From an uncultured Gammaproteobacteria bacterium (GTDB lineage: Bacteria; Patescibacteriota; Microgenomatia; Levybacterales; UBA12049): DNA of 64,000 nt. Positions 52,804 through 55,859 of the stretch are shown here, one piece after another. The translations under genes were made by a program, and so were the position numbers. How positions within the stretch are numbered: the first letter of the stretch is position 1; each line of letters opens with the position of its first letter. The DNA lies in NCBI GenBank assembly GCA_964540055.1, contig CAZILC010000001.1, positions 40,045 to 104,044 of the forward strand, read 5' to 3'. The notes below the pieces were generated by a model. That model saw nothing but the letters and a program-made list of their open reading frames with translations. It ran no database searches and had not been told where the DNA came from.

Positions 52804-53379
52804 CTACGAATGACGACCTCTCAGGTAGAGATTTCCTGAAGCACCCCTTCGTCTAGGTATTACTCTAGCCTCCTGTAATCTGCCAATGCCACTAGGTGTC
52901 GTTTGAAAACCCATATCTTGAAACACTGCTATTCTACCCGGTTCTTTGACATTTCGTGACAAAACCACAATATCTCCAGCGGGCTGCAACAAGCCAGTTT
53001 CCAATAGCTGATCTCTAGTTTCGTAAATGCTAGCTAGTGAATGGCTATCACCTCCTGAATCAAGCATTACGGCACCTGTATAAATATCCATAGCTGTCGT
53101 TGGCCTAGCTGCCATATAAAGAGTAAAAGGGCCATAATCTCCTCTTGCTAAATCTGCATCAAAAGCTCTTCCCACCCTTTCAATTCCGCCTGCTGCCAAA
53201 ATTCTTTGCTGTGCGGAGGAATATCTTGTTTTCCCGTCATCAGAGACAAGTGCTGTGACAAAGCGTGATGTATGACGCGATTGTTCGGAGGGTGGATTAA
53301 ACCACGAACTTGCAGCCGGATACATTTCCGCTGCTTTTACAGTATCAATAGTTAATATATCGGATTCAAATTCTGCCAT
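52804..53379 (-). CDS. hypothetical protein (ORFan D)
   Basis: 191 aa intact ORF. Basic C-terminus RRRGASGNLYLRGRHS. No family recognised. Confidence 0.45.
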   Translation of the reverse strand: MAEFESDILTIDTVKAAEMYPAASSWFNPPSEQSRHTSRFVTALVSDDGKTRYSSAQQRILAAGGIERVGRAFDADLARGDYGPFTLYMAARPTTAMDIYTGAVMLDSGGDSHSLASIYETRDQLLETGLLQPAGDIVVLSRNVKEPGRIAVFQDMGFQTTPSGIGRLQEARVIPRRRGASGNLYLRGRHS

Positions 53380-53681: not shown

Positions 53682-54257
53682 ATGATTCAGAATTTATCAA
53701 CCGCTGCCAGCACATTTCGTCCTAATTGGAAACTATTACAACCCGAAGTACAAAAATACTTTGTTGAAAATATGTTTTCTCTGGCTATAACTCAGAAAAG
53801 GACGAGTACCAAAATAACTATGGACGTACTTTATAATCAATTAAATACAGCTGAAATTCCCTATGTAATCGAACTCTTGGAAGAAAATTTGCCGTCTGTT
53901 CTTTTGACAAAATGCTATAACGACATGGGACTTCCCTTTGATGTTGAAGTCCGCAATACAGAACTCGGTCATCTTTTTGAGCACATCCTTCTTGAATATC
54001 TCTGCCAACACAAAATCGCAAAAGGAGCGCGAGCAGCAACATATGCCGGAAGGACCCGGTGGAACTGGAACCGTGATCCGCTTGGCCGCTTTCACATCCA
54101 TCTAACGTGCGGTAAAAAAGATTCCGATATTTTGCCGCCCGCGCTTGAGAAATCTGTAAGTCTTATGAAATTACTTCTCGGGTATAACAAACCTTTATTT
54201 GTGACAGATGTCAATCTCACTGCGAATGGATTAAAGAATGGAGAAAGGAGGTGTTAA
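53682..54257 (+). CDS. hypothetical protein (contains an HxxEH motif)
   Basis: 191 aa. ELGHLFEHILLEY contains HLFEH. No family recognised with confidence. Confidence 0.45.
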   Translation: MIQNLSTAASTFRPNWKLLQPEVQKYFVENMFSLAITQKRTSTKITMDVLYNQLNTAEIPYVIELLEENLPSVLLTKCYNDMGLPFDVEVRNTELGHLFEHILLEYLCQHKIAKGARAATYAGRTRWNWNRDPLGRFHIHLTCGKKDSDILPPALEKSVSLMKLLLGYNKPLFVTDVNLTANGLKNGERRC

Positions 54258-54262
54258 TGATG

Positions 54263-55255
54263 TTACTTAAATTTCCTAAAGAGATTATAGATATGCTTTT
54301 TGCTTTGTTCAGTAACTTTAACGACGACAATGCCTACGTCAAACTGCCCGTAGAGCACAATACTTTGGAGTGGAGCAAAGAGTATCGCCGGAATCGCCAG
54401 TAAATCTTCTTCTCCTGAGACGACTATCAGTTGCTCTGCGTGCGTCGTTTCAAAATCTGAAATCGCTTCCTTTATAGTTTTCGCTGCATCATAGGAAATT
54501 GTTCCGGGAGCATTATGAGTAGCTCTTTTATATAAATTATCAAAAGAAACGGCGTGATCTTTGTCTAACAGATGCCTGCGTGTTCGTCCGTCGATGATAG
54601 TGATATCGGCTGTTCTTCCTGCCTGTGCAGCCGATAGCGACACAATATCACCGACTGTAATCAACATAGATTGCGAATCTAAGGACCCGAGGAGAGTTTG
54701 CATATCTGTTGCAATAGACCCGATGGGAGTCTGGAGTTCTGCGCGAAGAGAGTCAGGGAGTACAAACTCCAATTGACCCTCAAACACTTTCGCGTAGGAC
54801 TTCCCTTCCCGATTAGTTACACCTCGACGAATCCGCTCAGAAGAAATAATCTCATTATCATCACCTATTACAAATGGTACCGTAATAATCTCAAGTTTTT
54901 TGAAACTTTTTTTCTCACGCTCTTCATTTATTTTTTCTGCATTCAATTTGGTTTTTTCCGTAACAAAAATAGCATCAATATGTTCATCATCCAAACTATT
55001 GCCAAAAATATCGTGAATTGGGATAATCTTTGATCGTCTAGTCAAACCATGGGTAACCAGAAAAACTGAGACTGCATGTTCACGGGTTTTATAATCTTCA
55101 ATTAACTTCGCGAAATTTTTATCTTTAAACAATGCATCAGTCGCGATACCTATCGTGACATGTTCAGATTGTTCAAAGGCAGCAGTCAATAACGCTTGAT
55201 GTCCTACATGAAATCGATCAAAAGTTCCCCCGACAATTGCATTTTTAAACTTCAT
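54263..55255 (-). CDS. fusion of archaeal/eukaryotic-type phosphopantetheine adenylyltransferase (cytidylyltransferase fold) and DUF359 (GTP-dependent dephospho-CoA kinase-like)
   Basis: Start at ATG 55255 (MKFKNAIVGGTFDRFHVGHQALL, i.e. GxFxxxHxGH). The C-terminal half carries the DUF359 hallmarks ITVGDIVS, ITIIDGRTRR, VSGEEDLLAIPAILFAP...VLYGQFDVGIVVVKV. Confidence 0.7.
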   Translation of the reverse strand: MKFKNAIVGGTFDRFHVGHQALLTAAFEQSEHVTIGIATDALFKDKNFAKLIEDYKTREHAVSVFLVTHGLTRRSKIIPIHDIFGNSLDDEHIDAIFVTEKTKLNAEKINEEREKKSFKKLEIITVPFVIGDDNEIISSERIRRGVTNREGKSYAKVFEGQLEFVLPDSLRAELQTPIGSIATDMQTLLGSLDSQSMLITVGDIVSLSAAQAGRTADITIIDGRTRRHLLDKDHAVSFDNLYKRATHNAPGTISYDAAKTIKEAISDFETTHAEQLIVVSGEEDLLAIPAILFAPLQSIVLYGQFDVGIVVVKVTEQSKKHIYNLFRKFK

Positions 55256-55262
55256 AATCCAA

Positions 55263-55291
55263 AGTATACTGGGAAGGTTTGGAATCCGCAA
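55263..55291 (-). promoter_or_regulatory. promoter: TTGCGG-17-TATACT, with the ATG 7 nt downstream
   Basis: Minus-strand read: TTGCGG (55291..55286), TATACT (55268..55263), ttggatt, ATG (55255). Confidence 0.55.
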
Positions 55292-55322
55292 CTGGAATGA
55301 ATTCATTTTTCTATTGATTTGT

Positions 55323-55331
55323 TGCTATAAT
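55323..55331 (+). promoter_or_regulatory. extended -10 promoter TGcTATAAT, with the ATG 6 nt downstream
   Basis: TG at 55323..55324, TATAAT at 55326..55331, cccgat, ATG at 55338. Confidence 0.55.
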
Positions 55332-55337
55332 CCCGAT

Positions 55338-55859
55338 ATGTTAAGCGAGGCTTCACAATATCAAAAAGATTTAGGTGTTACAAAAGCTATTGTAAAAAAA
55401 ATAGGTATCGAATCAAACCTTTCAAATAATACTATCTCACAAGCGGTTGAGGCAATAGACTTTCAAGCAGAGATATCTCCAGGTTCTACAAGGGTTTTTG
55501 AACTAGGTACGGCAAGAGTAAGATTTAGGCCTGCGGAATATGGTAGAGCGATAACTGTCTTTGATAGTATTGCCCGACCTAACGGAGTAGAGCTAAAAAA
55601 TCACTATAGAGTAGTAAAAGAACTTGAAGATAGACTACCTCGACGAGAAAGCAAATTAGAGGTAAGGCGCGAGCAAACCTTAGATAAACAGGCTTCTGAC
55701 GAAATTACTTTTCGTCCGCAATTTCTGATTCCTGCTATAGTTTGTGGCTATTATGCCTGGCAAGCAATAAAAGAAAAAGATTACGCCTCGGCTTATTTTT
55801 GGGGATCGACAGCTATTGCGAATTTAGTTGGAGTATTTGTACCAATCGAAGATGATTAA
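55338..55859 (+). CDS. hypothetical protein (ORFan E), C-terminal membrane hairpin
   Basis: Start moved from TTG 55314 to ATG 55338 on promoter geometry. 173 aa. Two C-terminal hydrophobic helices (FLIPAIVCGYYAWQAI, WGSTAIANLVGVFVPI). Confidence 0.5.
   Translation: MLSEASQYQKDLGVTKAIVKKIGIESNLSNNTISQAVEAIDFQAEISPGSTRVFELGTARVRFRPAEYGRAITVFDSIARPNGVELKNHYRVVKELEDRLPRRESKLEVRREQTLDKQASDEITFRPQFLIPAIVCGYYAWQAIKEKDYASAYFWGSTAIANLVGVFVPIEDD

Follow-up and report, generated by a model that had tools for sequence, protein, structure and literature searches.

A fused archaeal-type phosphopantetheine adenylyltransferase and DUF359 dephospho-CoA kinase as the probable replacement of CoaD and CoaE in a candidate phyla radiation bacterium

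The window analyzed here is a stretch of 64,000 nucleotides from contig CAZILC010000001.1 of assembly GCA_964540055.1 (positions 40,045 to 104,044), derived from soil metagenomes. At 54263..55255 on its minus strand, it carries a gene encoding a 330-aa protein in which an archaeal-type phosphopantetheine adenylyltransferase (PPAT) is joined to a domain of the DUF359 family of dephospho-coenzyme A (CoA) kinases (DPCKs). This protein is very probably a bifunctional "CoA synthase" composed of archaeal modules, which replaces the bacterial enzymes CoaD and CoaE and was acquired from archaea in its already fused state. The N-terminal PPAT would convert 4'-phosphopantetheine and ATP to dephospho-CoA, and the C-terminal DUF359 domain would phosphorylate the 3'-OH of dephospho-CoA to yield CoA, with GTP as the probable donor, as in TK1697 of Thermococcus kodakarensis. 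The fusion would represent the only recognizable route through the last two steps of the pathway in this bacterium of the candidate phyla radiation (CPR) and, hence, a non-orthologous displacement of CoaD and CoaE. CoA would be required, besides other uses, by the neighboring mevalonate operon at its thiolase, 3-hydroxy-3-methylglutaryl-CoA (HMG-CoA) synthase and HMG-CoA reductase steps. The features of the gene are as follows.

54263..55255, minus strand: PPAT-DPCK fusion gene, 330 aa (open reading frame [ORF] listing, translation, homologue starts and both Pfam domains)
54263-54265, minus strand: stop codon of the fusion gene
54776..55255, minus strand: N-terminal half, residues 1-160, archaeal-type PPAT, a Rossmann-like nucleotidyltransferase (NF001985, 3DO8 match and Foldseek)
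55199..55231, minus strand: GGTFDRFHVGH, residues 9-19, nucleotidyltransferase HxGH motif with H16 and H19 (alignment of 18 homologues)
54827..54847, minus strand: ISSERIR, second nucleotidyltransferase motif of the ISxxRxR type (alignment of 18 homologues)
54266..54775, minus strand: C-terminal half, residues 161-330, DUF359/arCOG04076 DPCK domain including its N-terminal helix (PF04019, NF041125, 8JVC and Foldseek)
54647..54649, minus strand: Asp203, equivalent to TK1697 Asp48 (8JVC alignment; invariant in 18 homologues)
54590..54592, minus strand: Asp222, equivalent to TK1697 Asp67, inside IIDGRTRR (8JVC alignment; invariant in 18 homologues)
54404..54406, minus strand: Asp284, equivalent to TK1697 Asp125, inside GEEDLL (8JVC alignment; invariant in 18 homologues)
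55256..55306, minus strand: in-frame upstream extension of 17 codons to an alternative ATG at 55306 (no counterpart in homologues)

The profile for the archaeal-type PPAT subfamily, NF001985, matched residues 19-170 of the maximal 347-aa frame with an E value of 2.2e-40 (138.3 bits, cut-off 104). The Pfam model PF01467 was likewise exceeded (E value of 1.2e-9; 39 bits, cut-off 21), while the bacterial CoaD model TIGR01510 reached only 16-17 bits in the fusion protein, compared to its cut-off of 103. In sequence comparisons, the N-terminal half matched the PPAT of Archaeoglobus fulgidus (3DO8) with an E value of 5e-13 and an identity of ~24 %. Both signature motifs of the nucleotidyltransferase superfamily are preserved. 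Across 18 diverse fused homologues (42-65 % identity), G9, G10, T11, F12, D13, H16, G18 and H19 of the first motif and R141, I142 and R143 of the second are invariant, and I137 and S139 are conserved in at least 90 % of the sequences, which amounts to 11 invariant and 2 highly conserved residues in the two motifs together.

The assignment of the C-terminal half is equally clear at the level of the family. PF04019 (DUF359) was matched over profile positions 2-125 of 126 with an E value of 3.8e-31 (107.8 bits, cut-off 25), and NF041125, which describes the GTP-dependent DPCK of Thermococcales, aligned from end to end with residues 181-345 of the 347-aa frame. No match to PF01121 (CoaE) was found in the fusion protein. 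The solved GTP-dependent DPCK structure 8JVC was matched at an E value of 1e-19 and an identity of ~33 %. The conserved segments of the domain are TVGDIVS (residues 200-206), IIDGRTRR (residues 220-227), GEEDLLAIP (residues 281-289) and LYGQFDVGIVVV (residues 301-312). Within the alignment of fused homologues, D222 and R227 of the second segment are invariant and T225 is conserved in at least 90 % of the sequences, and all of G281, E282, E283, D284, L285 and L286 are invariant. Taken over the whole protein, the invariant or nearly invariant elements are GGTFD-x2-H-x-GH, SSERIR, GD, D-x2-T-x-R and GEEDLL. The three aspartates kept here are those with known consequences in the archaeal enzyme. 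Previous research has shown that mutants of Asp48, Asp67 and Asp125 in T. kodakarensis TK1697 are impaired in complementation and that the D48A exchange almost eliminates it (PMC6650551).

The predicted structure is in line with these assignments. An AF2 model built on the homologue alignment was confident along the whole length of the protein (pLDDT of 91.7, pTM of 0.87). In Foldseek comparisons of this model, 8JVC and 8JVG ranked first with target-normalized TM-scores (TMt) of 0.85-0.88 (8JVC: E value of 6.4e-16, TMt of 0.85 over 173 columns), 3DO8 ranked second (TMt of 0.70-0.81), and bacterial CoaD structures, among them that of Escherichia coli, came next (TMt of ~0.6). As modeled, the C-terminal half would fold like the solved DPCK, with a derived Rossmann fold resembling that of thiamine pyrophosphokinase. 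Both domain assignments are made because the evidence from sequence, motifs and fold concurs.

In the assembly from which the window derives, CoaD was not found above cut-off (TIGR01510 at 16-17 bits versus 103) and CoaE was not found at all (no PF01121 match), and the protein studied here is the single DUF359 member. As one incomplete metagenome-assembled genome (MAG) proves little, 151 genomes of the same class were searched; these are relatives and not independent, and no statistics are therefore given. DUF359 was present in 37 of the 151 genomes, always in an open frame of 320-400 aa (one of 611). CoaE was detected in 6 genomes, with no overlap with the DUF359 set, and CoaD above cut-off also in 6, none of them with DUF359; CoaD and/or CoaE occurred in 7 genomes altogether, again none with DUF359. 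Neither route was recognized in the remaining 107. CoaBC, which acts upstream, was found in 13 genomes, each of which holds exactly one of the two last-step routes: the fusion in 12 and CoaD plus CoaE in one (G441). Furthermore, two single-contig genomes (G443 and G516) encode the fusion, CoaBC and HMG-CoA reductase without CoaD or CoaE. Such a complementary distribution is what functional replacement predicts. Since the window's assembly has bacterial-type enzymes (PanC and CoaBC) at the upstream steps and an archaeal-type enzyme at the last ones, the pathway is a hybrid of both domains.

These results agree with most of what an earlier, sequence-only reading of the same DNA had claimed. It had described the N-terminal half as a PPAT of the archaeal/eukaryotic kind rather than CoaD, and indeed NF001985 scores above its cut-off, TIGR01510 falls far below, and 3DO8 is the closest structure. 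Its assignment of the C-terminal half to DUF359 and DPCK holds as well, given the PF04019 match and the three retained catalytic aspartates, and it was correct in citing Shimosaka et al. (2019) for DUF359 as the GTP-dependent DPCK of archaea (PMC6650551). Every motif that it quoted was found in the translated protein, and the gene boundary that it had placed at 55255 coincides with the Met at which homologues start; the strand, which it had not given, is the minus strand. With both Pfam models above cut-off, neither coaD nor coaE found in the genome and no case of either together with DUF359 among the 151 genomes, its proposal that the two bacterial enzymes are replaced gains support.

Joined PPAT and DUF359 domains have been seen before. 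PPAT-DUF359 fusions in uncultured archaea served as a clue to the function of DUF359 in 2019, and PSI-BLAST searches in that study recovered archaeal members only (PMC6650551). The archaeal fusions (for example AIF21550.1 of Euryarchaeota belonging to group II/III; PMC6650551) have the same domain order, a length of ~330-350 aa and the catalytic motifs and are homologous to the present protein throughout. In contrast to these, the present protein is found in a CPR bacterium that has genes for peptidoglycan and uses PanC and CoaBC upstream in the pathway, and the bacterial copies lie on their own side of the tree. Fused forms, archaeal and bacterial alike, are known from sequence only. The separate enzymes TK1697 (8JVC), TK2128 PPAT and A. 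fulgidus PPAT (3DO8) belong to the same families and folds, and D48, D67 and D125 are kept here; however, T. kodakarensis uses two separate genes, while the two functions are predicted to reside here in one polypeptide, at ~33 % and ~24 % identity.

Bacterial CoaD and CoaE catalyze the same two reactions, and CoaD shares the nucleotidyltransferase superfold (TMt of ~0.6). They differ from the fusion in that TIGR01510 falls short of its cut-off, PF01121 is not matched, and the two systems are mutually exclusive in the class sample. Eukaryotic COASY likewise combines PPAT and then DPCK in one polypeptide, and its PPAT half is of the archaeal/eukaryotic type. However, the kinase half of COASY is a P-loop homologue of CoaE with a fold unrelated to that of DUF359, and the present protein shows no CoaE signal. 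COASY and this fusion are analogous and arose independently. As a separate observation, two genomes of the same class contain CoaD and CoaE matches 12 nt apart in one 380-aa frame (G083:C3:55389-56405 and G501:C4:96800-97819), which looks as if the bacterial-type enzymes had been joined as well, in parallel with the archaeal-type fusion and with COASY.

The fusion architecture was thus already known in archaea, and it represents the typical state in about one-quarter of this CPR class; new are the bacterial host domain, the hybrid pathway and the class-wide mutual exclusion with CoaD and CoaE. We found no paper on the DUF359 family in CPR or other bacteria, in a literature coverage that is incomplete and does not prove absence. 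In databases, CPR copies are labeled "pantetheine-phosphate adenylyltransferase" or "PPAT/UPF0218," NCBI names in which PPAT is the only function given. To our knowledge, the last two steps of CoA synthesis, which are bacterial drug targets, have been thought to depend uniformly on CoaD and CoaE. A CPR branch that finishes CoA with joined archaeal enzymes of unrelated structure would be a testable case of cross-domain non-orthologous displacement and would correct metabolic reconstructions in which such genomes are scored as lacking CoaE. In addition, a compact protein from a mesophile may be better suited to studies of GTP dependence and channeling than the enzymes of hyperthermophiles.

Many genes are known to be common to CPR genomes and archaea. 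Searches of the protein database returned 736 matches among clusters at 90 % identity, and relatives were present in at least 569 species genomes. Both halves were located in one ORF in 110 of 111 related loci; in the remaining one (L096), the N-terminal half is split over two frames and looks frameshifted. Outside the CPR, the fused form occurs in Poseidoniales/Thalassarchaeaceae (marine group II [MGII]) and in DPANN lineages such as Aenigmatarchaeota, with a full-length identity of 30-36 %. In the phylum of the MGII genome, DUF359 was found in 97 of 101 genomes, mostly as a standalone protein and in ~17 cases in frames of fused size. It was less frequent in the phylum of the Aenigmatarchaeota genome (DPANN), at 36 of 101 genomes with about one-half in fused-size frames. 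The sampled CPR phylum had only 9 holders among 401 genomes, concentrated in the class of the window's host and exclusively fused.

In a full-length tree with 106 rows and 337 columns, obtained under LG+G4 (all trees came from quick searches without mixture models), all bacterial rows fall on one side of a branch with an SH-aLRT support of 92, accompanied by one ambiguous pair, and the fused clades of DPANN (support of 100) and MGII (support of 100) are on the opposite side. The trees of the two halves, a check proposed in the sequence-only reading, agreed on the archaeal clades and on the nearest neighbor but left the backbone without resolution. The concordance of the two trees indicates that the halves have traveled together. 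Searches with the N-terminal half for standalone forms returned only CPR fusion fragments, and the N-half tree consequently has no standalone archaeal PPAT as an outgroup. Most likely, the fused gene passed from archaea to CPR bacteria and was then spread and lost within the CPR, with the number of transfers and their direction suggested by the distribution.

Several sequences in this set deserve mention in their own right. Twenty-five records labeled Gammaproteobacteria, Pseudomonadales or Weeksellaceae interleave with named CPR rows, and those sampled come from genomes of 1.0-1.4 Mb without CoaE and ribosomal protein L30; these labels are probably wrong. The loci in question are L037, L039, L041, L047, L051, L053, L055, L056, L061, L063, L065, L067-L069, L072, L073, L080, L081, L089, L090, L096, L098, L104, L105, L110 and L113. 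L077, labeled as a Norongarragalinales archaeon, and L078, labeled Kaiserbacteria, encode virtually identical fused proteins, which implies either an error in one bin or label or a very recent transfer. In some CPR relatives of ~500-555 aa, PPAT-DUF359 is preceded by an additional cytidylyltransferase-like domain at the N-terminus, which is a second PF01467 (P0120 and P0083; L046, L053, L054, L057, L059, L070, L071, L074, L089 and L105). Roizmanbacteria and relatives (L043, L044, L047 and L049) have ~100 additional residues between the PPAT half and the conserved DUF359 core, and the HMM match of their C-terminal half begins only at profile position ~72-79. A 155-aa protein on a 60-kb contig that is not short (P0163) is 75 % identical to the N-terminal half only and could represent a close relative's fusion that has been split or frameshifted.

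A number of observations weigh against the interpretation as a CoA synthase transferred from archaea. The activity of the bacterial members is predicted from sequence and model only, and a preference for GTP is presumed from one archaeal enzyme, to which the identity is ~33 %. Likewise, the equivalog level of NF041125 was not reached (98.8 bits versus a cut-off of 300); the model is specific to one order, and such a score is expected for what appears to be a distant family member and not an equivalog. The assembly is 82.6 % complete, which makes the absence of CoaD and CoaE from this genome weak by itself, and the argument for replacement is for this reason carried by the class-wide pattern and the closed genomes. 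The contig with PanC and CoaBC (C17) plausibly belongs to the same organism, but this is not proven in view of its lower GC content (34.5 %, versus 38.9 % for contig C1); its CoaBC is closest to the CPR CoaBCs of the class. With regard to origin, the backbone was unresolved in single-half trees and when standalone archaeal DPCKs were added, and neither a single transfer nor its direction is therefore demonstrated. Finally, the window's protein groups with L036 and sequences of the Levyi- and Roizman-type and not with its counterparts from the same GTDB family, which suggests a transfer within the CPR or a taxonomic or binning oddity.

Some of these observations could also be accommodated by a bifunctional PPAT-DPCK whose kinase half is either ATP-dependent or promiscuous and whose fusion is an ancient, vertically inherited trait of the CPR. 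Donor specificity has been measured for only one archaeal enzyme (PMC6650551), the CPR rows occupy their own side of the branch in the full-length tree, as do CPR mevalonate enzymes in theirs (PMC6107057), and resolution of the backbone is lost upon addition of standalone forms. However, a trait inherited vertically from an early CPR ancestor would be difficult to reconcile with the very patchy occurrence of the gene in the CPR phylum, with its near-universal presence in the sampled archaeal phylum and with its place in the pan-archaeal core, where DUF359 was counted in 454 of 524 genomes (PMC6393860). Moreover, only the derived, fused state is seen in the CPR, compared to both states in archaea. 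We therefore consider this alternative unlikely, and acquisition of a ready-made archaeal fusion remains the preferred explanation.

The relationship of the fusion to other CoA-related genes was assessed in the same class sample. CoaBC was not detected in 25 of the 37 fusion holders, and these CoaBC-less relatives, about two-thirds of the holders, most likely salvage imported 4'-phosphopantetheine, on which the fusion would act directly; this suggests that many CPR cells depend on an external supply of the compound. HMG-CoA reductase was present in 38 of the 151 genomes, 22 with and 16 without the fusion, and 15 genomes had the fusion without the reductase. The association between the two is strong but not strict. 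Previous work found mevalonate enzymes in most Microgenomates and placed them in a separate CPR clade (PMC6107057). The sequence-only reading had taken the mevalonate and CoA genes for a jointly archaeal-derived module; this view is not supported, as the CPR mevalonate enzymes form a clade of their own (PMC6107057) and co-occurrence is incomplete. None of the 16 reductase-only genomes (G200, G411, G413, G424, G435, G437, G444, G450, G380, G455, G463, G473, G481, G506, G508 and G514) encodes CoaD or CoaE, and these must depend on imported CoA, on an imported late precursor or on an unrecognized enzyme.

A more far-reaching scenario can be put forward only tentatively, as we judge it somewhat more doubtful than probable. 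The pre-fused gene may have crossed once, from DPANN-like archaea to early Microgenomates-type CPR, and become the main CoA-finishing route of the class. As the sole CoA-pathway gene found in 25 of 37 holders, it might support a two-step salvage of host-derived 4'-phosphopantetheine, and it might constitute the first GTP-dependent CoA synthesis in Bacteria. If this is true, the 16 reductase-only genomes point to import of CoA or dephospho-CoA or to a further enzyme.

As PF01467 covers a broad superfamily, the N-terminal half could in principle be a nucleotidyltransferase with another substrate, such as nicotinamide mononucleotide (NMN), flavin mononucleotide (FMN) or glycerol-3-phosphate, with the DPCK coupled to a different reaction. 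Weak matches of this half to FAD synthetase, NMNAT and TagD models, and the second PF01467-type domain in some relatives, would fit such a role. Nevertheless, NF001985 was the sole model to exceed its curated cut-off, the competing models reaching 12-37 bits, and archaeal PPAT 3DO8 was the closest solved structure to the N-terminal half in both sequence and Foldseek comparisons. The fusion partner is the enzyme of the next step in the pathway, which is a classic context for PPAT, and the genome contains no further PPAT candidate. Taken together, a substrate other than 4'-phosphopantetheine is very unlikely.

The upstream genes are located outside the window, at C17:20365-22930 of the same assembly (locus L004:138-2703). 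There, the gene that follows panC (C17:21213-21701) encodes a P-loop kinase of 163 aa; it shares 4 nt with panC and is convergent with coaBC. A Walker A motif (GLPGAGKT) is present in the kinase, which is only weakly similar to AAA_33/gluconokinase proteins, its best NCBIfam matches being gluconokinases at ~41 bits. We considered whether this protein could be the true DPCK, leaving the DUF359 half with another or a regulatory role, since CoaE itself is a small P-loop kinase and the gene is in close contact with panC and coaBC. However, it has no CoaE match, and it was found in 6 of the 151 class genomes, compared to 37 with the fusion. Five of these 6 also have CoaBC, the gene directly adjoins coaBC in four (G000, G426, G441 and G523, the first being the window's assembly), and in G441 it occurs alongside CoaD and a canonical CoaE. 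Such a distribution fits a pantothenate kinase and not a DPCK, and the DUF359 half retains its three catalytic aspartates; a DPCK role for the P-loop kinase was accordingly rejected on distribution and is highly improbable. No pantothenate kinase of type I or III and no archaeal phosphopantothenate synthetase was found in the assembly, and in the search with PF03630 (type II pantothenate kinase), the control matched no genome. The 163-aa protein is therefore a candidate pantothenate kinase of an undescribed type.

The host of the fusion gene is a bacterium of the Microgenomates-type CPR. A class A penicillin-binding protein (PBP1a, with transglycosylase and transpeptidase domains) is encoded 2 kb from the fusion gene on the same 120-kb contig, UppS and mevalonate genes lie just past it, and HMG-CoA reductase is ~9 kb from the fusion gene; the presence of the penicillin-binding protein and UppS identifies the contig as bacterial. 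Ribosomal protein L30, the absence of which is a CPR trait, was not found in the genome, and the named relatives nearest to the fusion protein belong to Levyibacteriota, Roizmanbacteria and other Microgenomates. The assembly (G000) comprises 1.58 Mb in 62 contigs with GC contents of 31 to 43 %, is roughly double the size of other members of its family and is the only one in its family with CoaBC and HMG-CoA reductase. That the MAG is a mixture of two related genomes was considered and found unsupported: of 285 ORFs on low-GC contigs, only 35 had a full-length homologue on a high-GC contig, with identities that were nearly all under 50 %, and a check for housekeeping genes duplicated between the two sets yielded none.

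The idea that the gene is non-native, as part of a misbinned archaeal contig, or is a recent acquisition decaying without function has next to no probability, for although the families of both halves are otherwise characteristic of archaea, the MAG is broken into many contigs and uneven in GC and the L077/L078 pair illustrates that labels or bins can err, the contig is shared with the penicillin-binding protein and UppS, the GC content near the gene is typical for its contig, the fusion is also present in the single-contig CPR genomes, and 705 clusters at 50 % identity (E values of at most 1e-30), intact frames and invariant catalytic residues point to long-term purifying selection.

The maximal intact frame in the ORF listing spans 54263..55306 (347 aa). 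We regard 54263..55255 as the best gene model because position 55255 is the Met of MKFKNAIVGG, at which the aligned fused homologues begin as well, and because an identical 330-aa product, predicted by a gene caller, is already in the protein database. The upstream extension is probably a non-coding 5' leader or promoter region. Promoter-like hexamers detected by a promoter scan at 55389-55455 (minus strand) lie upstream of both ATGs, and the choice of start is thus decided by homology alone. The sequence TTGCGG-17-TATACT is present between the two ATGs but remained under the threshold of the scan and was not relied on.

No family match was obtained for the neighboring ORFs at 52804-53379 (minus strand) and 55314-55859 (plus strand). 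Directly downstream of the fusion gene and convergent with it, a 191-aa ORF at 53682-54257 (plus strand) has a subthreshold match to the N-terminal domain of cyanophycin synthase-like proteins (24.6 bits, cut-off 27).

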